A stretch of DNA of 54,803 nt, the filler included, from Dirinaria sp. TL-2023a (taxonomy: Eukaryota): NCBI GenBank assembly GCA_051941275.1. It is 5 parts of 5 records of this genome, joined end to end, with 100 filler letters (N's around TTAATTAATTAA, not from the genome) between each part and the next. Parts side by side here need not be neighbours in the genome. Positions count along the whole stretch, not along the records: positions 32,988 to 43,846 come from JAVEBF010000899.1; 4 more parts are not named here. One strand, given 5' to 3'. Each line of letters opens with the position of its first letter. The stretch's first letter is position 1. Made by a program: the position numbers and the translations under genes. Shown piece after piece: positions 17 to 43,946 of the stretch. The notes below the pieces were generated by a model. It ran no database searches and was not told where the DNA came from. It saw only the letters and a program-made list of their open reading frames with translations.

Positions 17-1873
17 TCATCCCTCCCCATCAAGCTCCTCAATCTCCCTCTCTTTCCGCCTCAGCGCCTCCCGCATCTCGTCCGCTTCGCGCCGCAACCG
101 CGCTTTCCTGGCTTCTTTATCACCCCATCCCCCCGGATCCCCGTTGCCAACACTGCGACTCCTCGTCTCCAGCTGTGGGGGTGGCAGTTGTGGAAGCGAG
201 GCACCGGACAATGAATGCACGGAGTGGCGCTGCTGATGCTGGTGCTGTTGTGGGGCTAATCCGGCGAGGCTGGGATCGATGGGCATATCCTCCGCACCTT
301 GAGATTGTGGGTTGAGGATCGAGGAGATGGAACTGAGGCGGTTGGCACGGCCGGAGTCAGGGGTCGAGGGGGAGGGGTGATCGCGGTCGGTGGCGGAAAA
401 GCTGCGCTTCCGCGAGTGCGAGGATAGAGAGCCAAGGTTGTAGGGGGGTTCGGAAGGGGAGGAGAGCCCGCCAGGCTGCGGATGAGTGGAGGATCGTCGG
501 TGCGGATCTAGTTGGTAGCCGGTGAAGTCAACTCCGATGAGGGGAGCGTCGAAGTGCTGTTGCGAATCGGCTTGTTGTTGGTCACGGAGACGGAGGTTCA
601 GATCGAGTGCTTCGTCAGAGTCGGTATTTTGCGGCGGCTGCTGTTGGTGTTCTTTGGAATTGGGGGTTTCTTGACGCTGTACTTCTTGATACTGCTCATC
701 GGGCGTGTGCGAAACTGGGAAAGAGGTGACGTGCGAGCTGCTCGGAGACGGCTCTTGCATGGCCGGCACAACCCTTTTTCTGCGTTTGATGATCGATTTC
801 TTCATCCCTACCGGTCGGTGCACACCATGGAGCTTGTGATATAGCCCTTTACAATGTTAGCTTGGAAATCTCTCAAACTTAAGGCTTGCGTACCACAAGC
901 ATTGCATATCGTTCTTCCGCTCTCGTCTCGTCTCCACAACGGAGTTATAGTAGTCCCGCAGTTCTGACAGGAAAGGACCATGTTGGCCGTACTCGGATTC
1001 GCACCTGGAGCGAGCTGAGGCAATGACCTCGGGCTAGTATCTTCCTGATACTGTTGGGGAGGCCCCGCGGCACCGGGAGATACTTGGGATATAGATACTT
1101 GAGCCGCCTTTGATATCCGGTTATTGTATGCTGGGCATCCGTTGCAGCCACTGGCGCCGCCGGTCCCGTTGCATCTCCCACCCCCGGGACATGTACCTGT
1201 GGTAACCTGACTGGCAGCTACATAAGTAGGTCTACCAGCCGATGTCGAACCGTCTGCAGTGGCTGGGGATAGGCTTCGTGGAGGCTCCGTGGAGTCGAAA
1301 TCCGAACCAGGCGCAGATATAGAGGGAGGCCGCTTGAGAGTAGTAGGGCGTGAGGTATTGCGCGCCTTGTAGTATAGTCCACAGGCGTTGCATATTGTAG
1401 AGCCCGTGGGCGATCTCCGCCACAATGGAGTAGACGTGGTTCCGCAATTGCTACAACTTGTCATTTCTTGATCAAGATTTGCGAGATGATAAGTTGATCT
1501 TGGAAACCTACCTGCATTTCTGGCCGTTCGTAGCCGGAACATTAAGCGGCGAGTACTGAGATTCTCCAGTGTGATCTGGTGATGACGACTGCCGAGATTC
1601 CGGCGGAGGTTCCATATGATTGTGACCATTTTTTGTGCCATTTTGAGGCGCGTTATCATTCTCGCTCAAAGCTGGATTATTCATCGTGTCCCTCTCTGAG
1701 CGCGTCGAACCAGACTCACGTCGGCCTTGCGCGTGGTGTATCAGCTGGGCAGCAATCTCGTAATCAGCCTGATCGAGCCCTGATTGCCTCGGTATTGAGT
1801 CTTGTGGTTGCTTTTGGCCAGGATGTCCTTGTACTCCCATACTGAAACTCTCGGAAGATGTGGCGTTGGTCAT
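17..1873 (-). CDS. sreA: SreA/SRE/Urbs1-type GATA transcription factor (iron-responsive repressor of siderophore genes); 3 exons, introns 1451-1511 and 847-893
   Basis: Two GATA zinc fingers ([14 protein letters not shown]...CNACGLY and [14 protein letters not shown]...[12 protein letters not shown]) flank the Cys-rich [22 protein letters not shown] segment. C-terminal coiled coil. The GT-AG introns restore the frame. Confidence 0.93.
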
Positions 1874-4158: not shown

Positions 4159-4920
4159 TTATGCGACAGCGAGTTCCTTTATCATGGTCACCATATGAAA
4201 TCCCTTCACGCTTCCAAATAAACCTGCCTCGAAGAACCGAGCTTCGACTGTTCTAAATCCTTGTCGCTTCCAAAAGCGTTCATTGATCTCCTTCGCCGTT
4301 CGTGCCCAGAGTTTGGGTTTTTGGTTCCTGTCATTGTGGGTCCTAGCTTTGTTCTTGACTTCGTCGGCGATTGCCTGTAACAGTTGCGAAGCCAGTCCAT
4401 GCCTCTGCCATTCAGGGGCGACTACAACGGCTACAACCTCCATCTCTGTAGCATTTTCCTGGCCCTCGTCTGAGGTTCTCGTTTTCGAAGCGTCGAAGAG
4501 CGCTGACTTGCTCTCGCTCGACAAGTGTACTGCTGGCTCGCCTGTTTCTCTCGGTTCGGCAGTGTCTGAGGTGTTAAAAACTCTCTTTTATTTGGCATCA
4601 TATTGGTCTTGTAGCAGCCACTTTTCCTTGTAAGGCTTGTAGCTGGCCGTAGCGACGATGCGTCTGAGGTTCGTGCTGCTCTCCTCACTTTCGACTTCTT
4701 CCGTCACAAGGAAGAGGATGATGTCTGAGCCTAGTTCGTCCAGCAGCTGCTGTTCGCTGTTGAAGCGTTCCTCTTTTGGCCTGAGGATGTCTGGATGCTT
4801 TTTCCTGTTCTCTCTAAAGGCGCGATTGATCATGTGGTAGAGCTCCGGTAGCCTAGGGAAGTTTGCGAGTTCCTTGGCGTCAAGTCTTTCTATTCCGAAT
4901 TTCGGCTGTGGTGCCGTCAT
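4159..4920 (-). pseudogene. GNAT-family acetyltransferase interrupted by a single in-frame TAA at 4590-4588
   Basis: ORFs 4588-4920 and 4159-4524 share one frame and the 63 nt between them are open. GNAT motif A (VVVAPEWQRHGLASQLL) and NERFWKRQGF are present. Confidence 0.65.
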
Positions 4921-5297
4921 GGTTCCTAATTTCTTTCAAGCAGTGTCCACTGGTAGCCACCGTCATGAACTTTTTCGATAAAATGATTGTGTGTGTTCAG
5001 GAAGCCTCGTCCGCTGCCTAATGTGTCAATCTATGCCGGATCCTGGGCTATCTATACCTGGTGGCCGTAGTGTTCAAGTAAAATGAATAAGCGATTTATG
5101 GCGGAAACATTCCTAGAGATGACGAGCCTCTGATAATAGCAGTAGCGAGAAAACCTGGATGGGGAGGATAAGTACATCAAATGCTGCAGCCCTTATGACT
5201 CATTTGACGTTGCCGATCAAAAACGGACAACTTCGGACCAATCTGCTAGTATATCTCATCGCAAACTGTAATTCTACCAACTTTATCCTGTGAATAT

Positions 5298-7461: not shown

Positions 7462-8890
7462 ATGGGCTACACTTCTGAATTCCCATTGCTTAATGCTTCA
7501 GGATTGTACGTCGTAGATACTGCTGGAAACGGTATGCTATGCTTCTCCTTCTACATTGGATCTGAATTATTTCTCCTTTCGTGTTGCCCGAATGGCACTA
7601 ATACGTAGCGTGTAGGCAATTGCCTATTCAATGCGCTCTCTGATCAACTGTATGGGGATCAGTCCCGGCACGCCGAGATCCGCGAAGCAACAATCCAATA
7701 CATGCGTGAGCATGGCGATTTCTACAAACAATTCGTAGACGTGAATCCAGGGGGTGGTGTGCGTCGGAATCCCAAGCGTAAGAATGCTGGCGCTTTCTCG
7801 ACGGCGTTCAATGCCAAGGGACCGACTCCAGAAGAGATCAATCGAGTATTCGAGAGCCACTTAGCCCAGATGGCTCGTGGAGGTACATATGGAGATAATA
7901 TGGAAATCAGTGCATTCTGCTGTGCTTTTAATGTCGATGTCAAGATATACCAGCAGAGCTTTGCCTACATGGTACCTGTCGATCATGCTCGACCGGCAAC
8001 TCAAGTGGCACATGTTGCATATCACGCATGTCTCCGGCATTCTTTACTATTTGAACCATAGCTAATGGGTATCTCAGACCTGGGAGCATTATTCCTCCAT
8101 CCGGAACCTTGCTGGACCGCACAATGGACCTCCCATGGTCAAGGACAGCACAGCAGTGGAGGAATTCAAGAGCGATGTCGATTTTGCCTATTCAAAACCT
8201 CGCAGCATTGAGATTGAAAGCAGCTGCTCTTCCCGTAGTGGAAGCGTGAGCGTTGAGCGTGATCCGGACAGCGAGGATGAGTCTTTATCTGCGCCAAAGA
8301 AGAAGCAAGACCGACGCCTTAGCCGTGCCAAGCGCATCAGCAACAAGGAGCAAGATTCTCAATCCAACTCGCATCTCAGTGTTCGTATCAAAAGCCCTCC
8401 CGTTAATTTTAAGCGCGAGTCCTCCTCGGCTTCCGAATCTTGCAATCACTCAACCGGCATTAAAGATGGATATGAGACCGAAGACGCGAATTGGACTAGC
8501 AGTTCGCCACTCAAGGACTCAGAATCTGCCTCTGTCACAACCTCAGCTTCCGAGTGCTCTATTCCAAGCAATTCAGGCTCGGGTTGTACTCGTGTTAAGC
8601 TTAGTCAGCCCAAGAAGCGGGATGATAAATCTCTCCCTCTTCCAGGAACTCGTCCCGTCAGTGACCTTCCCTTCCGGAATGGCATTCCTCAAACTACTCT
8701 CAGTACCACTCAGCAACGTACAACAAGCCACAGGAAGCGTCTCGTGTCCCGGAATGAACGCGACATGTTGAAGAAGGCTGTGGCCCCAAAGCGGTACCGA
8801 GAGGCCACTGCTCAATCTCTACCAAACATCCAGAAGGGCAAGGAGAACACTCCTGCTATCGAGACGCACATCAAAGTGCTTGTCATCTAA
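7462..8890 (+). CDS. OTU-domain cysteine protease (deubiquitinase-like) with a Ser/Lys/Arg-rich C-terminal tail; introns about 7532-7615 and 8026-8077
   Basis: GNG|NCLFNALSDQLYG catalytic Cys box, GTYGDNMEISAF, and the HVAYH|TWEHYSSIRN His box after splicing. Confidence 0.88.
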
Positions 8891-10923: not shown

Positions 10924-11023
10924 NNNNNNNNNNNNNNNNNNNNNNNNNNNNNNNNNNNNNNNNNNNNTTAATTAATTAANNNNNNNNNNNNNNNNNNNNN
11001 NNNNNNNNNNNNNNNNNNNNNNN
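10924..11023. other. Artificial contig-joining spacer
   Basis: N44-TTAATTAATTAA-N44; stop codons in all six frames. Confidence 0.98.
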
Positions 11024-21920: not shown

Positions 21921-22020
21921 NNNNNNNNNNNNNNNNNNNNNNNNNNNNNNNNNNNNNNNNNNNNTTAATTAATTAANNNNNNNNNNNNNNNNNNNNNNNN
22001 NNNNNNNNNNNNNNNNNNNN
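21921..22020. other. Artificial contig-joining spacer
   Basis: N44-TTAATTAATTAA-N44. Confidence 0.98.
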
Positions 22021-32887: not shown

Positions 32888-32987
32888 NNNNNNNNNNNNN
32901 NNNNNNNNNNNNNNNNNNNNNNNNNNNNNNNTTAATTAATTAANNNNNNNNNNNNNNNNNNNNNNNNNNNNNNNNNNNNNNNNNNNN
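32888..32987. other. Artificial contig-joining spacer
   Basis: N44-TTAATTAATTAA-N44. Confidence 0.98.
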
Positions 32988-33810
32988 GCCCCCAAACTCC
33001 CCCAAGTCCCAAAAGTCCCAAAGCATATTTTAATGCTTCCATGCAGCTCATCACCACCACCGTGGAAGGCTATCGTTGGCTCTGCAGTCTTGCTCCGGCC
33101 AGCTGCCTTTTCCTCCCACGCGTGTGCAGTCTGTCGTGCTTTGGGCTGATATGTGCCGGGTTTTGATTCGCCCAGCTCATCTGCACAATGTCGTCCGCGG
33201 CTGCCGCTGGGAGGCAGAGCTGCAGCGCCGGATCCTGGTTCAGATCTGCCTTCTTTTGCACACTGCATATCGTGGGATGTATGGAAGAGGCAGAATATCC
33301 CTCCTTGGAATGGAATGGTAGATGGAAGATACTGCTTCTACGAACTACCCAGATTCGCGCGTCATTGCGGGCTTTGGGGTATCCCAAGGACTTGAGTCAC
33401 TATTTTGACACGGAAGGAAAATCTATGGTCGAGTGCATTGATAATTGCTTCTCTACGTGTTTTGAAACGCTTAGCTCTAGCTACAGAGGGCCCCTTAGCA
33501 GGAGCACAGAGGGGGAAGAAAGGCACTCATTCCCGACGCTGGGGCCCTGGCAAAGCAAATGGTAATAACCGCCAGTCGATACGAGTGCTCCCCGTGCAAC
33601 TGCGTACAGCATTTCCAGACACACTTCTGGCAAAGTACGTGTGGTGTCGACAGTGCTGTAAGGAAATCACAAATGTAAAGTGACGCTTCATGTATGCCCG
33701 TATCTTATCCACCTCTTATCGGTAGACTAGCTATTCCCTTCTATGGCACAGGCTGGCAATCATAGTGCAAGGTCTGTAGTCCGGATATGGGGGAGATGAA
33801 GGCGAGCCAC

Positions 33811-36000
33811 TTAGTGGAATCGACGACCCGTGGGGCCTTGTCCGCCACGGCGATCCATCTCTTCAAACACCGTATAGCGACCCTCGTGGAAGGTAGGACG
33901 ATATCTCGGATCGCGCCCAAGGCGGTTCGGCGGCACGCCCCAATCCCCGAAGAAGCTCTCGTCTCCCCTTGGCCCTTTATCAATGCACCACTCTGGAACC
34001 GGCGCGTAGCGGGCGAAATGATCGCTCTTTCCGTTCTCGCGGTCGCTGACATAGCTCGCGAAGTTGAGGCAAACCTGCTTCAGCATGTCGTCGATGTCAT
34101 TGGATGTGGCAGTCGAGTTGGCGGAGAGATTGGATTTGGCAGCGCGTTCGGCACCAATTGCAGCGATGGGACTGCAGGTTTTGGCGCTAATGGGGCTGGT
34201 AATCGTGCTGAAGGAGTCCGTGGAGCGACGGTAGCCGGGAGGTTCCTTAGAATAGCATGCGTCCGAAAGCTCGTTGAGTGTGGCGCGAGGGATACCGTGG
34301 GCACGCGTGTCGTTGTGCCACCAGGCTTCGAGTTCTTCAGTGGAGCGCTCGACACGCTTGGGCGGCTGAGTTAGAGAGTGGATGTACTCATTGCCAGGGC
34401 AGAGTCCGGGTGGAAAAGTAGGACGGGCATGGTACTCCTGTTCCTGCGTTTCGTCAAAAGTGTAGGCAGTGGGACTGTTGAAGATGCTCACTGGACGATT
34501 GTGCCACGGAAGAGGGTCGCTAGTTCTGAGAGCCTCTTTCTCCGCTTCTGGAGCCTCTGCTGTAGTATCCGGGTGATTCGACTGTGGTTGGCCCATACTG
34601 CTTTGAGCGAGTGGATCGTATAATACCGTGCGAGTAGCCCTCGGTAGATCGCCACGAGCTTCGGATTCAGCGACTTGGCGGTCGAGATTCTGAAGAAGGA
34701 ACTCTTTCTTGCTAGCCGAGTAGCTGCTGTACGGTCTAGAGTCACGAGTGTAGCTGCTGCTGCTGGGTGGTGTGAGACCCGGCGTCACAGTGGGGACAGA
34801 GACTCTAGGAGTCGTGACCGGCTCGTCCAGGTTGTAGGAGGGCTGAGGACTCATGTGAGGTTGGGATGGCTGAGGAAAGCGGAAGTTGTAATCCATGGTG
34901 CCCTTCACTACAGCAGGCTGCTTTTGTGATGCAATGCTGGAATGAATGTTTCGTGGATTGTTGGCATACTCAGCAGCTGAGACGGGCTGATTGTGAGATG
35001 CAAAGCTCTCGTGAATGTTAGACGGATTGCTGGAGAGCGCGTAAGCTGCACGCGGCTGCTTCATATTTGGCTGCTCCGTGAATGGGTCCTCGTTTCCGCT
35101 AAGCTTGGACTGGTCAGACATAGTACTAGCATTTGAGGCTTTCGATGGATTGGTGGAGGGCCGGACTGAGTACTGGTAGCCAGAGAAATTATCGTGAGCT
35201 CGAAGCTGATTGCCTGAACTAGCTAAATGGCCTTGAACTGGGTACATGCTGGAGGATTGATGAGACGAATTAGGGACTTGCATGTTGACATCCAATTCAT
35301 TGGAGACGTTGTTGTAGTTTCTGAGATCACTAGGAGTCGATCGGCCAAGACCTGGAAGAGGGAACTGATGAAGATAGTCTTGGTTGTACAGTGATGCAGC
35401 ACGGGAAGTGGAGGGATCTCTAGAAGTCACAGCTCGCTTACCCTCCTTGACCTGTGGATTACGAGCATGCTCATGAGAAGACACCTCAGATACTGCAGCC
35501 GACATCGCAGGCGAGGAGTGCAGAGTAGATTGTTTCTCTCCTTCGAGCACTTGGTCCGAGAATTCACTCAGGTTCAGCGGCTTCCAGGCTTTAGATCCTC
35601 GATTACCAGGTTTAGAAAGCTTGACAGTTCCAAGCGGTACTGAAGTCGAAGCCGAAGCTTCATACTCGGATTGCATGGCTTGGATCGCTTTTTGTGCTCT
35701 TACCGCGTTTAATTCTGCAGCTCGAGCTTTGGCTGCAAATGTTGTGCCAGAGGTTAAGTTGGCTAGGCTAGCCATAGTAGGGAGTTGCCCCTGGAAAGGA
35801 TCCATCTCCTCTAGCTCACGACTGTAAGAAAACCTCTGAACACCCTCAGGTGTTGATCCCCCAAGAGATGCTTGTTGCTCCTGAGAGTCTCGAGGAATGG
35901 TTCTGATATGGGATTCTGTCTGATGAGTGACAACGTCTCTTACCGCTTCTGCATTTGTTGCTCCTTGTCGAGGTATAAAACGGAACTGATTATGATCTCT
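33811..36000 (-). CDS. Hypothetical protein, mostly Ser/Pro-rich and disordered, with a conserved-looking C-terminal motif; true 5' end uncertain
   Basis: Open frame of over 2 kb. The C-terminal FARYAPVPEWCIDKGPRGDESFFGDWGVPPNRLGRDPRY resembles a motif in uncharacterised Pezizomycotina proteins. The first ~90 codons of the computed ORF look non-coding or intronic. Confidence 0.75.
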   Translation of the reverse strand, partial: RDHNQFRFIPRQGATNAEAVRDVVTHQTESHIRTIPRDSQEQQASLGGSTPEGVQRFSYSRELEEMDPFQGQLPTMASLANLTSGTTFAAKARAAELNAVRAQKAIQAMQSEYEASASTSVPLGTVKLSKPGNRGSKAWKPLNLSEFSDQVLEGEKQSTLHSSPAMSAAVSEVSSHEHARNPQVKEGKRAVTSRDPSTSRAASLYNQDYLHQFPLPGLGRSTPSDLRNYNNVSNELDVNMQVPNSSHQSSSMYPVQGHLASSGNQLRAHDNFSGYQYSVRPSTNPSKASNASTMSDQSKLSGNEDPFTEQPNMKQPRAAYALSSNPSNIHESFASHNQPVSAAEYANNPRNIHSSIASQKQPAVVKGTMDYNFRFPQPSQPHMSPQPSYNLDEPVTTPRVSVPTVTPGLTPPSSSSYTRDSRPYSSYSASKKEFLLQNLDRQVAESEARGDLPRATRTVLYDPLAQSSMGQPQSNHPDTTAEAPEAEKEALRTSDPLPWHNRPVSIFNSPTAYTFDETQEQEYHARPTFPPGLCPGNEYIHSLTQPPKRVERSTEELEAWWHNDTRAHGIPRATLNELSDACYSKEPPGYRRSTDSFSTITSPISAKTCSPIAAIGAERAAKSNLSANSTATSNDIDDMLKQVCLNFASYVSDRENGKSDHFARYAPVPEWCIDKGPRGDESFFGDWGVPPNRLGRDPRYRPTFHEGRYTVFEEMDRRGGQGPTGRRFH

Positions 36001-37668
36001 GTGTGCACGCGCGACTAAGATGAACACTTTCAGTCTCAGGCATACAAACAGATGAATACCTTTGCTTTGTGTGAATAGATTTTCACTTACAGTAAGCAGA
36101 ACCGGGCTGAAACCCGTAGAATGGATACATGTTTTCAAAAGCCAGTTTGCTGCTGATATTGATGCCGAGCAACTAGGAAAGCGCGATATGAATGAATGAA
36201 TGTTTGAGCGGCAGGAAACATCTTTACACGATCTTTGTGCGGAACTCGCGTCTTTGCATTCACTACTACGACGCGCCTGCACACTTTACAATCCTTACTT
36301 TGGACTTTGCTGTAAAAGCTCGCCAATAGCAGTCTTTAGAAGATCTGGATCAGCACCTACAATACTTCCAAGCCTATTGCTACTGTGCTTAGATTTCGAG
36401 CTATGAAATATCCATGCAAATGATCCATAGATCATTTAGAAGCTAGAAGAGATGTCTGTTCAGCTACCTTGGTACAAACTCCGCTAATTATCCTAGATTA
36501 GGCCTTCTCTTTAGCAGCCGCAGTGTACTTCATCGACACAATGGGATCAGAACAGCGTTGGAGAAACTTTGAGCCATATTTGCGCTTGAGCTGAATCTCT
36601 ATGTTTGTATGATTGTCAGCACAAGGCACAGATGTGGAGGCGCTATCAACAGTCAAAAAAGAGAAAGCCATGCAGCTACCCATACTCACAAAGGGATCGC
36701 TTTCTGTAGAAGTTTCCATGCAAAGTATAAGCAAAAAAGTTCTCTTCCACTCACCATACTCTCTCCTTATCTTAAAATGATGATACCCTCTAGCTCTGCT
36801 CTTACTCCACGAATCTCTTTAATGGCATAAGATAGAGACTTCTCAAAGACCATGAGCAACCAACACATCTGGCAACCCAATAACTAATCTCCAGAACTCC
36901 GCATCGATATACCCTGTGGCAGCTAGACACAAATATTAAGGTGGCCAGAGCCTCGGTGGCCGGCACTCACTATTCACACCCGGCCATCCCCTCATCAACG
37001 ATCCAAATAAACCCAAACCTCTTTCCCAAAAATCCCATTCCGAACCAAAACATCCAATTATCCCAACCATCCTCATCACTAAAAATCCCCGTCTATCATA
37101 TCTCTTCCAAAATCTGGTAACAGCCCGAAGGCCATGGTGCCAAAGGTAAGGGATTTTCCCAACCCCGCCTGGGTGCTGAAGTGGTATCCATGATCAATCT
37201 GCGTACGCTCGGAGAATAATATTTGCTGGCAGCGATAAGTCTAGAATGTGAGGGATTTATAGGCGCGTTTTTGTATGCTGGGAGGCGTTCAGAGGACGTA
37301 TTGCCCAAGTCTTTGATGAGAATTGACTGTCACATCGCTGTCCACCTCACTGATCACGGAGCGCTGTTGAAACCCTAGGGAAGCCCTAGTTGTGCAGCTT
37401 GTACATTTCGAAAGGGCAAAGGTCCCGTCGCTTCCTTTACTACAGGTACGAGCTCCGTCCTCGCAATGCTTCTCTCACATGATGCAGATCACATCGATTA
37501 CAGAACACTGTATTGGAAAGGGCAAAAGTCCGTAATAGGTATACTTTTCGTTACTGAAGCTAATAATGCTAATCACTGCCGAGAGCTATTTCATAGCAAG
37601 GAAAGACTCGCTGAGCAGAAACAAGCCCAGCTCTTCCGCTCCCGTTTCATTGGATAGCCGCCGGCCAA

Positions 37669-38819
37669 CTAGAAATTGGGATCCAACTTGTTCGCAGTGT
37701 CCGTGTGATGCTCGCCTCCATGGACAAGGTCGTCAACAGCTCCCTCAGCGCGCCTCAGACCGCTCTGGCCACCTCGGCTGTCGTACTCGCCTCCGCCAAT
37801 CCCGGTAGTCGAGCTGTCATTACCGTAGCCCGACCCCAATCCGGAAGAAGAATTATCGTATCGGGAACCCGTCCCACTGCCGGTGGTATCGTCATAACCC
37901 CCGCCCAAGCCTGAACGGTCGGAACCGATCCCAGATCCCAATCCCCTGGAGCCGGTGTTGTCATCGTATCTGCTGTCTGTGCCCCCACGGCTTGAAGAGG
38001 TTGTGTCGCCGTAGTCAGAGCCGATGCCCCCGCGTTCGGAGGAACCGGTGTCGTCGAGTCCTGAACCAATGCCGGTTCGGGAAGTGGTGTCGCCATAGCC
38101 CGAGGCGCCTGTGGCCCCACGACCAGACGAGACGTTGTCGTCGTAGCCAGATGAGCCCACTCCAGAGCCCATGTTGGTCCGATCACGGCCTGAGGAGGTG
38201 GTATCACCGTAACCGGAACCGCCCAGATCAGAGTCGATGTTCCGACGACCTGAAGGAGTATTGTCGTCGTAGGTCGACGAGCCAAAGCCGGTCCCAGCAC
38301 TTCCACGGCCTGAAGTAGTGTTGTCGTAGCCAGAGGAACCAGTCCCGGAGCCAATGCTCCCGCGGCCAGAGGAAGTATTGTCATCGTAGGTCGACGAGCC
38401 AATGCCCCCGCGGCCAGAGGAAGTGGTGTCATCGTAGCCAGACGAGCCAGTGCCGGAGCCAATGCCCCCACGGCCAGAGGAAGTGGTATCGTCATAGCCA
38501 GACGAACCAGTGCCGGAGCCAATCCCTCCGCGGCCAGAGGAAGTGGTGTTGTCGTAGCCCGAGCTACCGGAGTAGCCACCGCCTAGACGGCCAGTGTTGT
38601 CGGCGTCGGTATTCGTGAAGCCAGCATTGCTATCGCCACGGATGCCTTCAGCACCTTCATAGTCGCCTGTTCCATATTCTAAATCCTGTGTCAGTGGAGG
38701 TGGCAAGGCAATTGAAGTGGAACTGAGATACCATTGGAACCCTGATTGGCAGCTCGTGCTGACGGGGTGTTCTTCTCACCCGTGAGGGCGTCTTTGACTT
38801 TGTGCATCACTCCAGACAT
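37669..38819 (-). CDS. Gly/Ser/Thr/Asp-rich hydrophilin, fungal dehydrin-like; intron 38679-38731
   Basis: MSGVMHKVKDALTG N-terminus, tandem SSGYDDTTSSGRGGIGSGTG repeats, and C-terminal HHTDTANKLDP resembling the fungal dehydrin DPR motif. Confidence 0.8.
37790..38575 (-). repeat. Coding tandem repeat (about 60-nt / 20-aa unit, degenerating toward the 3' end)
   Basis: Repeated ccagaggaagtggtgtcatcgtagccagacgagccagtgccggagccaatgccccc-type units at 38290-38570. Confidence 0.9.
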
Positions 38820-39756
38820 GTTGGAGGAAGATGAGATAGTGGTGAAGTATGAGTAGGGGAATAGTAATGGACTTTTCACTGGTGGGTTAGATGATTGACT
38901 TGAGAGAAAGAAGAATGGATATTGAGTGGAAGAATTGAGGAGAGCAAAAAGAGGAGATGGTTGGGTCTTTAATAGACAGACTTGCCTTCCTGACACGAAA
39001 CTTGGCGGCAGCTCGGGGCAGGTACAAGTCGTACCTGACGTACTCCGTACTTTCCCTGTTTTTACCCCACAATCACCCCGCGCTACCTTAGGGTAGTGGC
39101 GGTGCGCTGCTGCACCGCCACATATCGAATTCTTGAATCGCTACCTAAGGTACCAGCATCGCAAAAAGGACTGGTTCTACAAGAGGCACGTATTGGCAGA
39201 TCCCGTGGCTCTCGACTGCCGGTTTTTGTACTGAATGTCCAAGTATTCTTGCAAGTACTGTAGCACTGCCGCCACAACACGCTACTCTACTGGCACAATA
39301 ACCCTCCCAACTAGGTAGGTAAGGTACTTTAGGTACTCCTTTCCAATCACATGATCATGCATCCGACCCCCTTGATGCCTCCGAATCAAGTATATCCATT
39401 ATTTCGCTATTCTAGGGTGCGAATTTCAAGCAAACACGGTTTAATGAAGTGACGACTGGACTGATTGACTCCGAAAGTACTGCTGTCAAATGGGCAATCC
39501 GTCAATGTTTAAAGATGCTAGGGGAAAACCAATGAGAGCGGTATTGCTAGATGAAAATGAATCGTGAGAAGGGACCCTTGGCGGTAGATTGGAGCTTAGG
39601 TAAATTGTAGGACTCAGAGTGCTAAGGGAGTCTTACCTAAGGTACCTTAAGGTATGATGTAGCAGGACGGTACCTTATTCCTTACGTCCATGCGATATGC
39701 GCAGTAAGGTATAGGTACTATGGAAAGTACTCCCCGAAAACCTCGACCGAGAAGAA

Positions 39757-40557
39757 TCAAGCACTACCACCCCACCGCAGGTTGCTGATTGTTCCCGCGT
39801 TGTGGCCAAGCTGTAATCCCGAGTTGTGACTGCCCGAGAAGACTATATTGGGCGTTGGAGCCTTCTGACCCATAGCTTTCACGACAGCCTCTTCCAGAAG
39901 CTTGTCCTGGCTCTTTGCCGCACCCTCTAGCATCGAGAGAGCTTCAATTCCATTCATGTCAGCCACCTGAGCCACCTCAGCGTTGCAGAGCTTTTTCTGC
40001 GATTCTTGAGCGGCCGGAAAGAGCTCAATCAAGTCGTTGACGAGACTCGTGATGTCCTCAATCAGTCTTTTGAAGTGTTTCTCCTCATACAGTGCCCATT
40101 TTGCCTTCTGTCGTAACCCTGTTTGGTTCTGGCGTTTGATCGATAGATCGCGCATTCGGTTGTGCAGAGACAAAGCGGTGGGCTCGAGGTCTGTCTGGTT
40201 ATCATGTACAAGCGACTCTTGCTTAGATCGTCCGGCTCGGGTTTTGAATTTGGTTGATATGCCTTCTGCATCAGCAAAAAGTTCCAGGATTTGACCCAAA
40301 ATCTCCTCGGCCTTTGTCACACTCTGTGCCGATCCTAGGACTTGAGGCAGAGACTGTGTATCTTCGAGCTCGCCACTCAGACCAACGGATTGACCCCACC
40401 GTGATAGGCGAAGTCTTGCGCCGTCGAGTTTGAGCAAGCCATTTTGATATCTCTGGCCGAAACTCCGACCAATTTGGACATATTCGAAACAGTCTACGGC
40501 GTTGTTGAAAAGACCAGCAACGGTTAGAACGCCGACAGTGAGGCCTGCGGGTTCCAT
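39757..40557 (-). CDS. HET-S-like HeLo-domain cell-death effector (266 aa, intronless) with a C-terminal PP-type amyloid signalling motif
   Basis: N-terminus MEPAGLTVGVLTVAGLFNNAVDCFEYVQIGRSFG..LKLDGARLRLSRWG closely matches HET-s/HET-S as I recall it. KWALYEEKHFKRLIEDITSLVNDLIELFP marks the HeLo end. Tail IVFSGSHNSGLQLGHNAGTI. Confidence 0.93.
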   Translation of the reverse strand: MEPAGLTVGVLTVAGLFNNAVDCFEYVQIGRSFGQRYQNGLLKLDGARLRLSRWGQSVGLSGELEDTQSLPQVLGSAQSVTKAEEILGQILELFADAEGISTKFKTRAGRSKQESLVHDNQTDLEPTALSLHNRMRDLSIKRQNQTGLRQKAKWALYEEKHFKRLIEDITSLVNDLIELFPAAQESQKKLCNAEVAQVADMNGIEALSMLEGAAKSQDKLLEEAVVKAMGQKAPTPNIVFSGSHNSGLQLGHNAGTISNLRWGGSA

Positions 40558-40822
40558 ACTGAAGGAAATGTCGAATTCGTCTTCAGATACAGGAGCAGAT
40601 AGTACAAGAGCCGGAAGTGCAAGATGTTGCTCTGATTCGGTACATGCACGAGGCGGGGCAAGGCTGTGCCCGATGCAGCGCCTGCTCGTACGACCTCCTA
40701 CTCGTGCAAGCACTACATTATATGATAGTCAGTGAAGACGGAAGTACCATGTTCACTTCTGAGATGACATTGCCTAGCTATTGCTACTAAGCGCTCGATC
40801 CTCAGTCTATCAGTCGCCATGA

Positions 40823-43393
40823 ATGGCGGAAAAAATCTCCAGCGCGGCATTCTCAGGCGACAGTAACCAAGGCTTCCAACTGGCGTACAACTCGGGCCGC
40901 GTCGATCTCAATTACCATGTTACGCAATCTGGTGTGTTCTGTCGTGTGCCGTTTTTGGAAACCGTGCTAACATTGGTCTGCTCCTGCCAGCGCAAAGACC
41001 CAGCTCTCGTCCTTGCTCCACCGTGCCGTTTCGGCGAGACAATGGCTTTGTCTATCGCGACACACTTGCTGAAATACATGCACGCTGTGCTCAGCCAGCC
41101 GCTCGAGTAGCACTTGCTGGCCTAGGTGGCGTCGGGTAGGAATTGGCTTAAAAAAGACGCCCGAGATGCAAGCTGATATATATGGTGAAGAAAGTCACAG
41201 CTGGCGATCGAGTACTCCTACCAAGTCAGAGACAGTTCATCCGAGACTTGGGTATTCTGGGTTCACGCGAGCAGCAAATCCAGAATCGAGGAGGGATACA
41301 GAAGAATTGCTGAAGCGACCAGACTCTCGGGATGGGATGATCCAAAAGCCGACATTCTGCAGCTTGTTCGTGCTTGGCTTTGTGATGAGTCGAATGGTAG
41401 ATGGCTTGTAATTGTTGATAATGCAGATGAGTTGAACGTGCTTTCCGATCTCTCTGGAGGTAGGCAGACGTGAAATTGACTATTGTTTAGAGAGACCCGA
41501 CAGCTAATGAGCCGCTAGATATTCTTCCAGAATCATCAAATGGGTCGATCCTAATCACGTCACGAAGCCGAGAGGCAGCGTTCGAGCTGATCGGTGAAGA
41601 CGAAAATATCATTACGATAGAGCCAATGAACGAAAGCTATGCTCTGGCACTCTTCCGAAAAAAGTTCAACGACCAATGTGATGACGACGACGTTTTGAAG
41701 CTGCTACGGAGTGTTGATTACATGCCGCTAGCGATCAGCCAAGCTGCAGCGTGCATTCGGCAAAGGAAGCCACGCATTACAGTCTCGAAGTACTTGCAAG
41801 ACTTTCAGCGCAGCGAGAAGGATAGAGAAAGCCTGTTGAACATAGCTGTACGAGATAGGCGTAGAGACGGCAAGGCATCAAATTCGATACTTGCTACCTG
41901 GCAGATATCGTTTGAATACATTCAGAAGACCCGGTCGTCGGCTGCCAGATTGCTCTCACTGATGAGCTTTTTCGATCGACAGGGGATTCCCGAGGAACTA
42001 ATTACTTCTCGATATGAGGAGAATGATGACTGTGTGAATTTCGAGGAGGATATTCAGATGCTGCGAAACTACTCCCTTGTCGCACTAGGCAAAGAGAATG
42101 ATGTTTTCGAGATGCACCGCCTCGTGCAGTTTGCAACAAGAAAATGGTTGGAACAGCATAAAAAGCTGGAGCGATGTGGAAATACTTATATCGCAATCAT
42201 GGCAGAAGCTTTTCCTTTTGGCAGGTATGAGAATTGGGAAAGATGTCGGATGTTGTTTCCACATGCAGAGTTAGTTATAGAGTATCGACCTATAGATGAG
42301 GTTTTCTTGCAACAGTGGGCAGAGGTCCTTACCAACGCTGCTGCATATGCGCATGGGCAGGGGAATTATGAAGAAGCAGAACAGATGCAACGACAAGCAT
42401 TGGATGCTCAGGAAAAGGTATTGGGAAAAGAGCATCCCGGCATTTTCTCATATGTCTCTAATTTAGCTCTATCACTCGGACATCTCAAAAAACACGAAGA
42501 AGCAGAGTCATTGCATCGACGAGCCCTGTATGGCTCTGAAAAGGTGCTGGGTAAAGAGCATCCTGGCACGTTACACAGCATTGGCGGTCTAGCAATTTTG
42601 CTCCGAGACCAGGGTAAATACGAAGAAGCAGAGCCGATGTTTCGACAGACACTGAACGGGTTGGAAAAGATGCTAAGGAAAAGAGCATCCTCACACCTCG
42701 AGAAGCGTTCACAATCTAGCAGTTGTGCTTGAAAATAGGAGTAAATATGAAGAAGCAGAGACGATGAGTCGACGAGCGATGTATGGCCGTGAAAACGTGC
42801 TAGGAAAAGAGCATCCCGACATATTGAAAAGCATTCAACTTCTAGCAATTGTGCTTCAACATCAGAGTAAATACGAAGAAGCAGAGGCGATGTGTCGACG
42901 AGCGATGTATGGCCGTGAAAATGTGCTAGGAAAAGAGCATCCCGACACATTGAAAAGCATTCAAAGTCTAGCGATTGTATTTCGAAATCAGAGTAAATAT
43001 GAAGAAGCAGAGACGATGAGTCGACGAGCGCTGTATGGTCGTGAAAAGGTGCTAGGAAAAGAGCATCCCGACACATTGCAAAGCGTTCAAAGTCTAGCAG
43101 TTGTGCTTCAAAATCAGAGTAAATATGGAGAAGCAGAGGCGATGAGCCGGCGAGCGCTGTATGGCCATGAAAAGATACAGGGGAAAGAGCATCCCAGCAC
43201 ATTGGCGAGCTTTTACTATTTAGCGTATCTACTGCATCGACAAAAAAAATATCAGATGGCTAAATCTTTATACGAAAGGGCGCTTGATGGCCTCAAGAAG
43301 ATATATCGACCAGATCATCCTGTAACCAAAGCATGCTCCGAGGAATATTCTTCTCTGCTACAGGAACTCGATCAAATCAAGACTCCTTCATGA
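40823..43393 (+). CDS. Fungal NLR: N-terminal PP-type amyloid motif + NB-ARC + TPR repeats; introns about 40932-40990, 41136-41190 and 41438-41490; +1 frameshift at about 42675
   Basis: FSGDSNQGFQLAYNSG N-terminus. STVPFRRDNGFV, Walker A GLGGVG|KSQLAIEY, FWVHAS, Walker B WLVIVDNADE, SILITSR, MPLAISQAA, MHRLVQ. 42-aa LGKEHPDTL TPR repeats follow. Confidence 0.92.
42350..43330 (+). repeat. 126-bp TPR-encoding tandem repeat array (about 8 units; those starting at 42740, 42866, 42992 and 43118 are near-identical)
   Basis: agtaaatatgaagaagcagag...ggaaaagagcatcccgac recurs every 126 nt. Confidence 0.93.
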
Positions 43394-43846
43394 ACCTGGA
43401 CGGCGCTACGCATTTTCAGACTTTCATTCTCGATCTTATGAAGGGTCTCTGCAGGTTTTTATGACTTATATAGATATATATATATCACTTAGCCTGATCA
43501 AAGAATGATCCGATTATAAGACAAACAGAAAAGCATATATCTCAGCTTGCTACTCGAATCTCCTGCAAAAACTATCCAAGTATATCAAACACCCACGTTC
43601 CCATCCACCCAGCAGAACCATCAAAATCTCCAGCCTTACCGAATAAAAACCCCAAACCTTATCCATCCCAAAAAAAAGATTTTCTCCTCGTCCCTACTTC
43701 TATTCCGGGGCTTTCCTTCCACAGCACTCTTACTTATTCATATAAAATAGCCAAAACAGGGGGGGTTGTGCTAGATTTTTGAGTAGATTAGTTAGAAAGA
43801 TGGTGAGGGATGAGGGATTTCGTTTTTATGTGCGGATTTATGAGAG

Positions 43847-43946
43847 NNNNNNNNNNNNNNNNNNNNNNNNNNNNNNNNNNNNNNNNNNNNTTAATTAATT
43901 AANNNNNNNNNNNNNNNNNNNNNNNNNNNNNNNNNNNNNNNNNNNN
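43847..43946. other. Artificial contig-joining spacer
   Basis: N44-TTAATTAATTAA-N44. Confidence 0.98.

Follow-up and report, generated by a model that had tools for sequence, protein, structure and literature searches.

The 54,803-nucleotide stretch of Dirinaria DNA analysed here (the window) very likely carries, on the contig of a lichen-forming ascomycete, a two-gene amyloid signalosome of PP type made up of an NLR and an effector, in which amyloid formation, templating and toxicity would be expected by homology. The domain content, the shared motif and the conserved adjacency of the two genes are directly supported, and RNA contigs of a close relative show transcription and splicing. A single piece of the window, 10,859 bp long (32988..43846; the N spacers were located), carries both genes, and the nearest proteins of the effector in the homologue listing come from Teloschistales. 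As the preliminary description had reported, the genes are divergent on one contig, and 265 bp (40558..40822) separate the start codon of the effector on the minus strand from that of the NLR on the plus strand. This intergenic region, delimited by the two start coordinates, is a candidate shared promoter, and it is plausible that it works in both directions.

Domain content and expression of the gene pair

The effector gene occupies 39757..40557 on the minus strand as one exon of 266 codons (coding 40557..39760) followed by a stop codon at 39757-39759, and is supported by its translation, by Pfam, by a PDB match and by the RNA of a relative. Its 266-aa product ends in NIVFSGSHNSGLQLGHNAGTISNLRWGGSA. 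The HeLo profile PF14479 matches residues 5-206 at E 4e-54 (184 bits, cut-off 23.2) and is covered from position 1 to 204 of its 205 positions, while Helo_like_N gave no match at E <= 0.1. Solved HeLo structures of HET-s/HET-S were also matched (2wvn at E 9.3e-40, 2wvo at 4.7e-38 and 2wvq at 3.9e-35), the alignment to 2wvn, the 'small s protein', running over residues 2-226. The N-terminal segment GLFNN.VDCFEYVQ.GR.FG is conserved between the effector and these structures. The claim of a true HET-S-type HeLo domain is thus borne out by the PF14479 score, the lack of a Helo_like_N match at that threshold and structural matches in the E 9e-40 class, and the protein may act as a membrane-permeabilising cell-death effector. 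Pfam gave no PF11558 match on the effector; the same profile does find HRAM-bearing relatives (L056, L076 and L079), and the HRAM-bearing HeLo relatives that were recovered are only 36-42% identical to the effector.

Close to its C-terminus the effector carries a single copy of the Ses_B/PP profile PF17046 (E 9.4e-13, 48.2 bits, cut-off 23.2), a profile described as 'aka PP-motif' in the available text of bioRxiv 10.1101/2020.01.06.895854. The matched stretch, residues 233-258 (39784..39861, minus strand), has the core FSGSHNSGLQLGHNAGTI; an alignment of 34 homologues shows no variation at F240, G242, N245, G247, Q249, N253 or G255. The pseudopalindromic PP core is given as NxGxQxGxN in the accessible part of PMC9815663, and the effector fits it exactly with NSGLQLGHN.

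The NLR starts at 40823 on the plus strand with the N-terminus MAEKISSAAFSGDSNQGFQLAYNSGRV, and its terminal stop codon is at 43391-43393. A four-exon model is open through three GT..AG introns. Exon 1 (40823..40931) encodes the N-terminal PP motif, matched by PF17046 over residues 5-25 at E 4.5e-8 (33.2 bits, cut-off 23.2); in the core NQGFQLAYN an A replaces the second G of NxGxQxGxN. Intron 1 (40932..40990, 59 nt, GTGTGT ... GCTAAC ... CAG) comes from the open-frame splice model, and the RNA contigs join ~40930 to ~40990. Exon 2 (40991..41135), predicted by the splice model and covered by RNA contigs, encodes a linker followed by the beginning of the P-loop (…VALAGLGGVG). Intron 2 (41136..41190, 55 nt) lies inside the P-loop, and its borders are the sole splice choice restoring GVGKS and with it the P-loop GLGGVGKS. 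Exon 3 of the model (41191..41459) runs from the rest of the P-loop to the Walker-B-like LVIVDNAD, with tblastn matches of 44-60% identity in the NLRs found upstream at related loci, and is followed by intron 3 (41460..41518, 59 nt), also from the splice model. The first frame of exon 4 (41519..42732) contains the rest of the NOD, DUF7779 (E 1.3e-11) and the first TPR units (TPR_10 at E 5.3e-29, TPR_12 at E 3e-24), and is cut short by a premature stop codon at 42730-42732; further TPR units follow in the +1 frame at 42677..43393, up to the terminal stop (TPR_10 at E 1.5e-50, TPR_12 at E 9.2e-45). All of these features are on the plus strand.

With single exons as queries, and not the spliced protein, NB-ARC (PF00931) stayed below its cut-off of 23.5 bits, exon 4 alone scoring 12.9. 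Two homologues that align with the NLR from residue 1 (P0219 and P0236) reach 26.9 and 28.4 bits and pass the Pfam cut-offs for both NB-ARC and Ses_B. Spliced in our script to 560 aa without stops, the NLR aligns from residue 1 to three PP-NB-ARC-TPR proteins (P0236, P0153 and P0174) with 42-46% identity in local blastp. The proposed sensor partner is present as a P-loop NOD, with GLGGVGKS across intron 2, followed by a TPR_10/TPR_12 array.

Transcription was followed in Logan contigs from four runs, all of one lichen metatranscriptome sample of one study. Since these contigs are ~93-96% identical to the window, they come from a relative and not from the Dirinaria genome itself. Both genes are covered. 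Over the effector the contigs are unspliced (39719-40602), whereas all three NLR introns (59, 55 and 59 nt, each with a GT..AG joint) are absent from them in every one of the four runs, so that the relative's RNA connects the motif exon with the NOD exons. Splicing of the N-terminal exon to the NB-ARC exons had been singled out beforehand as a point on which the idea could fail, and it is seen in the contigs of this one sample (4/4 runs). Between the end of coverage on the effector side, at 40602, and its start on the NLR side, at 40720-40734, ~117 bp are uncovered; contigs of this kind cannot reveal the true transcript ends of the genes that flank the spacer.

A frameshift in the TPR array as assembled

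As assembled, the NLR has a single surplus base in its third TPR unit, located between 42556 and 42683, which interrupts the reading frame. Because of this base the NOD frame stops at 42730-42732 and the TPR array resumes in the +1 frame, and the sensor as assembled would stop after ~2.5 TPR units. The anchors of the TPR units in exon 4 are spaced 126, 127, 126, 126, 126 and 126 nt apart, and the tandem array at 42496-43204 has a period of 126 with 5.6 copies and an 81% match between copies. An unrecognised intron was considered and excluded as the cause: the two frames overlap by 56 nt only (42677-42732), the shift falls inside one of the conserved TPR units of 126 nt, and the anchor spacing is longer by exactly one base.

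It may be that the sensor is inactive in this Dirinaria genome, or that the repeat array is mis-assembled. If the former, the module would be decaying, with the NLR a pseudogene by the +1 frameshift and the HeLo-PP effector orphaned, either inert or under the control of another PP-NLR elsewhere in the genome. We regard this as a serious possibility, although we lean against it. It would agree with the premature stop caused by the extra base, and signalling between non-adjacent NLRs and effectors is suspected in the part of PMC9815663 available to us. The RNA of the relative also bears on the question. From 42437 to 43400 its contig measures 458 nt where the window has 963, and as these lengths differ by 505, or 4x126+1, NOD and terminal stop would share one frame in the relative, and the extra base would be private to the window contig. 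The apparent lack of four TPR units in the relative may be a repeat collapse in contig assembly, and we have therefore relied on the frame arithmetic alone, which hints weakly at an uninterrupted NLR frame there; the relative's contigs do not span 42438-42965 and so give no direct evidence on the frameshift site. Against decay, a single-base error or a mis-join is a plausible artefact in a 126-bp array with this degree of copy match on a short, metagenome-type contig. Furthermore, the rest of the NLR is intact (the start codon, three splice sites, the P-loop and open TPR units past the shift), and the effector ORF is both intact and highly conserved among the 34 aligned homologues.

Conserved pairing, shared motif and proposed function

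PF14479 and PF17046 occur together on 101 of the 119 effector homologues listed, a count that an independent regex reproduced, and HeLo+PP is the commonest architecture among these listed relatives. An effector-side PP motif was found at 19 of 80 metagenome loci. The synteny proposed for examination in the preliminary description is conserved: of these 19 loci, 15 had enough flank, and at 14 of the 15 a PP motif adjoins the effector on the NLR side (the exception being L011), and an NB-ARC-like match lies beyond that motif wherever the sequence of the related loci extends far enough.

By homology to NWD2/HET-S and PNT1/HELLP, the TPR array would bind a ligand, upon which the NOD module would oligomerise and the clustered N-terminal PP motifs would nucleate an amyloid fold. 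[quoted passage not shown] Amyloid templating and cell death are in this way predicted for the HeLo/NLR pair from homology only.

A more far-reaching version of the orphan-effector idea is conceivable for Teloschistales. In its lichen-forming members, a conserved HeLo-PP executioner and its PP-NLR would be co-expressed in the thallus and the number of TPR units would vary between close relatives. The Dirinaria sensor would be truly frameshifted and its intact effector an orphan, which other PP-NLRs would trigger in trans or which would be free to act as a prion-like element in the style of HET-s. We consider this unlikely, but if true, lichen mycobionts would be a natural setting in which to see an NLR-amyloid module leave immune sensing for allorecognition or the control of symbionts.

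It is less likely still, and in our view quite improbable, that the pair is an allorecognition system (heterokaryon incompatibility or prion) like [Het-s]/HET-S instead of an NLR response to a foreign ligand. The HET-S type of the effector HeLo would suit such a role, and a frameshifted sensor beside an intact effector would suit the loss of NLR control. In the available text of PMC7885112, the PP regions of HELLP are propagated as prions and, in artificial set-ups in Podospora, lead to incompatibility; the same text leaves exaptation of HELLP/HELLF for allorecognition in natural strains still to be surveyed. [quoted passage not shown]

That the motif shared by the two proteins is the PP motif, as first suggested, was upheld, with both partners passing the PF17046 cut-off. 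The motif is C-terminal in the effector (residues 233-258 of 266) and N-terminal in the adjacent NLR (residues 5-25), and 9 of 18 positions are common to the two. When all 54,803 bases were scanned in six frames for NxGxQx[GA]xN together with FxGx(1-3)NxGxQ, these were the only two sites. On the 10.9-kb contig the PP hits were likewise these two only, with no SBP-type lipase bearing a PP motif. Co-variation of the motifs within pairs, which had also been proposed for study, gave no signal: in 12 distinct pairs, cognate motifs agreed at 9.83 of 18 positions and non-cognate motifs at 10.08 of 18 (permutation p 0.87). A chance or low-complexity (G/N/Q-rich) match between unrelated neighbours might be argued from the shortness of the motif, the limited number of residues in common and the mere E 0.092 at which a tblastn of the effector against the window reaches the NLR exon, but it is refuted and has practically no probability left given the curated PF17046 scores at both sites, their uniqueness in six frames of 54.8 kb, their placement, C-terminal in one protein and N-terminal in the other, which is the family pattern, and the recurrence of the pairing in related loci.

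Relation to known amyloid signalling systems

The design of a HeLo+PP effector with a PP-NLR has been published since 2012 and is common, and the locus leaves the knowledge of this system class unchanged. What it adds is an example of a PP-class NLR/HeLo amyloid signalosome in a lichen-forming fungus, transcribed in a close relative. For Xanthoria parietina, up-regulation of NLRs and HeLo/HET genes in thalli is reported in the available main text of a preprint (10.1101/2024.08.16.608140), in which the word 'amyloid' does not occur. As that text lists NLR and HeLo/HET genes without the term, the present locus could serve as a concrete candidate for non-self recognition in lichens.

Like HET-S/NWD2 of Podospora anserina, the window pair combines a HeLo PF14479 executioner (E 9e-40 to HET-s 2wvn) with an adjacent NLR that carries a copy of the effector's amyloid motif. 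The prion domain of HET-S is of the HET-s/HRAM kind with two repeats, and NWD2 is a NACHT-WD protein. The window pair, in contrast, has one PP motif, no PF11558 match and a TPR NLR.

The experimentally characterised PP system is PP/HELLP/PNT1 of Podospora anserina and Chaetomium globosum (available text of PMC7885112 and PMC5485727). In common with HELLP/PNT1 as described there, the window pair has a PP (RHIM-like) motif, a TPR-bearing NLR whose NOD is probably of the NB-ARC type found there, an adjacent two-gene layout and one copy of the motif in the effector. HELLP is HeLo-like (Helo_like_N / 4HB-MLKL-like, PF17111), whereas the window effector has the HeLo domain PF14479; it is predicted to work like HELLP/PNT1, yet it is no HELLP orthologue. 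With mammalian RHIM (the RIPK1/RIPK3 necrosome), PP shares a G-x-Q-x-G core and amyloid-based signalling, according to the accessible part of PMC5485727. The proteins, the domain context and the position in the pathway are different, and Pfam gave no RHIM match on the window proteins.

The preliminary description saw in the locus a mixture of two characterised architectures that was perhaps unreported. This does not stand, as the same architecture was described in 2012, and it is the commonest one among the effector's listed relatives. Daskalov et al. (2012, PLoS One, PMC3321046, section 8) gave the PP motif its first definition, using HeLo proteins of Arthroderma otae and A. gypseum, whose HeLo-PP genes adjoin NB-ARC-TPR STAND genes with a homologous N-terminal extension (PMC3321046). 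Unlike Arthroderma, a dermatophyte, the host of the window is a lichen-forming fungus with its nearest proteins in Teloschistales; compared with the Arthroderma pairs, the core of the window NLR has A for the second G, and the TPR array of this NLR contains a frameshift in the assembly. By published description, both nevertheless join a HET-S-type HeLo domain with a short C-terminal PP motif to an adjacent STAND/NLR gene with an N-terminal PP motif, a NOD (of the NB-ARC type in Arthroderma, and probably so in the window) and TPR.

Domains and motif of the effector and the NLR

The effector open reading frame (40557..39760, minus strand, stop at 39757-39759) translates to the 266-aa protein P0001, in which residues 5-206 form a complete HeLo domain (Pfam PF14479, E 4e-54, 184 bits) and residues 233-258 match Ses_B (Pfam PF17046, E 9.4e-13, 48.2 bits; cut-off 23.2). 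Neither a HeLo-like nor a HET-s_218-289 profile was found in the Pfam scan of P0001 at E <= 0.1. The effector is a true HET-S-type HeLo protein, as proposed in the preliminary description. Among PDB structures, P0001 matched the HET-s/HET-S HeLo structures 2wvn, 2wvo and 2wvq (E 9.3e-40 to 3.9e-35), in an alignment that starts at residue 2 and takes in the N-terminal hydrophobic segment. The PP motif is what PF17046 describes: bioRxiv 10.1101/2020.01.06.895854 writes 'Ses_B (PF17046, aka PP-motif)', and although its introduction gives this accession to the sigma motif, its methods and figure legend give it to PP.

The divergent NLR gene starts at 40823 on the plus strand (exon 1 sequence MAEKISSAAFSGDSNQGFQLAYNSGRV...). 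Scanning GT..AG choices for an open frame placed three short introns at 40932-40990, 41136-41190 and 41460-41518 (plus strand), across which the frame stays open; only the second intron choice restores the P-loop GLGGVGKS. The spliced product is 560 aa long and stop-free. Exon 1 by itself matches PF17046 (Pfam, E 4.5e-8, 33.2 bits), and exon 4 matches DUF7779 and TPR_10/TPR_12 (Pfam), with NB-ARC reaching 12.9 bits on exon 4 scanned alone, under the cut-off of 23.5. From residue 1 onwards, the spliced protein is 42-46% identical to the database NLRs with a PP N-terminus P0174, P0236, P0153 and P0219, and the two of these that were scanned both exceed the Pfam cut-offs for NB-ARC and Ses_B. The NOD-TPR module (40991-42676) is closest to those of all-in-one NLRs whose N-terminal domain is SesA (PF17107), at 49-54% identity over residues 29-560; PP-type NLRs reach only 41-46%. 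Such a pattern fits a swapping of N-termini between NLRs that share a NOD-TPR chassis.

The PP motif is common to both proteins, as had been claimed: PF17046 matches each, and the core occurs at two sites only in the window (regular expression, six frames). On the contig, the same two sites were also the ones matched by an HMM made from the motifs of 34 effectors. The two motifs are identical at 9 of 18 positions, with side-specific signatures (FSGSGNxGLQLGHNSGTM in effectors, FxGxxNQGLQVGxNSGxI in NLRs), and the effector side is the better conserved. Co-variation between partners, which the preliminary description had suggested looking for, was absent (permutation p 0.87), mean identity being 9.83/18 for cognate versus 10.08/18 for non-cognate partners over 12 distinct cognate pairs.

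The window is made up of five contigs, each about 10.9 kb long, with N44-TTAATTAATTAA-N44 spacers between them (10924-11023, 21921-22020, 32888-32987 and 43847-43946), and therefore features on different pieces have no physical linkage. The pair lies entirely inside the fourth stretch (32988..43846), whose length of 10,859 bp is also that of the 'longest contig' on record for the effector protein, and the remaining stretches carry ordinary fungal genes (GATA factor, kinase, CPSF73, TAF4 and armadillo-repeat protein). Two further minus-strand open frames share the contig of the pair: one of 824 aa (33814-36285), for which Pfam gave nothing at E <= 1e-5, and one of 368 aa (37672-38775), about 1 kb past the effector gene on its 3' side. 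The latter is rich in Gly/Ser/Thr, consists of tandem repeats about 20 aa long (…GYDDTTSSGRGGIGSGTGSS…) and has no Pfam match.

Transcription, splicing and the TPR array

Logan contigs from four RNA runs of one lichen-metatranscriptome sample of a single study were aligned to the window at a likeness of at least 90%. Their source is a relative about 93-96% identical. The effector gene was covered by one unspliced contig per run (39719 or 39769 to 40542-40602), differing from the window by 27-34 letters. The NLR gene was also covered by one contig per run, starting at 40720-40734 in three runs and at 40887 in X4. In all four runs its joints skip 59, 55 and 59 nt, each bounded by GT..AG, and coincide exactly with the three predicted introns; thus, in the relative and in this single sample, transcripts join the N-terminal exon to the NOD exons, as the proposed gene pair demands. 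Between the contig ends, which have no power to show transcript starts, about 117 bp of the 265-bp spacer lack coverage, a gap that would fit a compact divergent promoter.

TPR units repeat in tandem over 42496-43204 (period 126, 5.6 copies, 81% matches), and the anchors conserved in successive units are spaced 126, 127, 126, 126, 126 and 126 nt apart. The single 127 places one extra base between 42556 and 42683, and as a result the NOD frame ends at the stop 42730-42732, while the TPR units past it continue in the +1 frame as far as the stop 43391-43393. The base may be a true lesion, or else the repeat array was misassembled. Positions 42437 and 43400, 963 nt apart in the window, have counterparts 458 nt apart in the RNA contig of the relative; because the difference of 505 equals 4x126+1, and the NOD frame and terminal stop of the relative share one frame, the sequences suggest that the extra base is private to the window contig. 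Compared over 42437-43232, the NLR contig of runs X1-X3 is shorter by those 505 nt, or four units and one base. This suggests that TPR copy number varies between close relatives, unless contig assembly collapsed the repeats, which may account for the apparent loss of four units.

Conservation of the pair among relatives

A threshold of E <= 1e-5 gave 433 homologues of the effector. Among the matches listed, 101 of 119 non-self homologues carry PF14479 with PF17046 and 18 carry PF14479 only; a regular expression on the last 45 residues also found the motif in 101/119, most misses being near-variants or truncated models. Proteins of the lichen fungi Flavoplaca, Xanthocarpia, Gyalolechia and Letrouitia are among the nearest (73-79% identity, matches listed), and remoter homologues, from Dothideomycetes and further classes, bear the annotation 'small s protein'. 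F240, G242, N245, G247, Q249, N253 and G255 are invariant in a 34-member alignment.

Scanning metagenome contigs gave 80 loci, of which 19 have the effector-side motif and 15 of these sufficient flank. A second PP motif stands at the expected NLR N-terminus in 14 of the 15, and an NB-ARC-like match is then present wherever the sequence is long enough. The orientation is head-to-head upstream in 12 and downstream on the same strand in two (L019 and L020, which have identical coordinates, 7790-7858 and 8544-8594 on the plus strand, and identical motif sequences). In the remaining locus, L011, the NLR is present and no PP motif was detectable beside the effector. Three loci with truncated effectors (L018, L030 and L038) also have the NLR-side motif. 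In L007, NLR-type PP N-termini flank a HeLo-PP effector on both sides (1203-1265, minus strand; 4882-4941, plus strand), and thus two neighbouring NLRs may act on one effector.

HeLo homologues at 36-42% identity have a HET-s/HRAM domain in place of PP, PF11558 exceeding its cut-off in L056, L076 and L079 (12 loci scanned). Homologues 47-59% identical (L013, L017 and L021-L045) gave no PP match in any frame. Their open frames stop at 232-249 aa, and therefore they may have a different motif on a further C-terminal exon, or no motif.

Proposed mechanism and known systems

Domains, motif, adjacency and conservation are observed for the locus, and expression and splicing in the relative; amyloid formation, templating, toxicity and a ligand are proposed by homology. 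The TPR array would sense a ligand, after which the NOD would oligomerise and the clustered N-terminal PP motifs would seed an amyloid. This would template the single PP motif of the effector, and the HeLo domain would convert to a membrane-permeabilising form.

The preliminary description regarded the combination as a possibly unreported mixture of architectures. It is instead the architecture on which the PP class was founded, since section 8 of Daskalov et al. 2012 (PMC3321046) describes this layout for HeLo proteins of Arthroderma otae and A. gypseum: STAND genes adjoin the effector genes and have a homologous N-terminal extension, named PP motif, an NB-ARC NOD and TPR repeats. Later PP experiments used the HeLo-like HELLP/PNT1 (PMC7885112, PMC5485727), which is probably why PP has seemed to 'belong' with HeLo-like effectors; according to sections 22 and 24 of PMC9815663, PP goes with both pore-forming and enzymatic effectors. 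The locus is genuine and was well read, and it belongs to an already known, common class. Only three points set it apart: its host is a lichen, RNA supports it, and its TPR sensor is frameshifted or variable.
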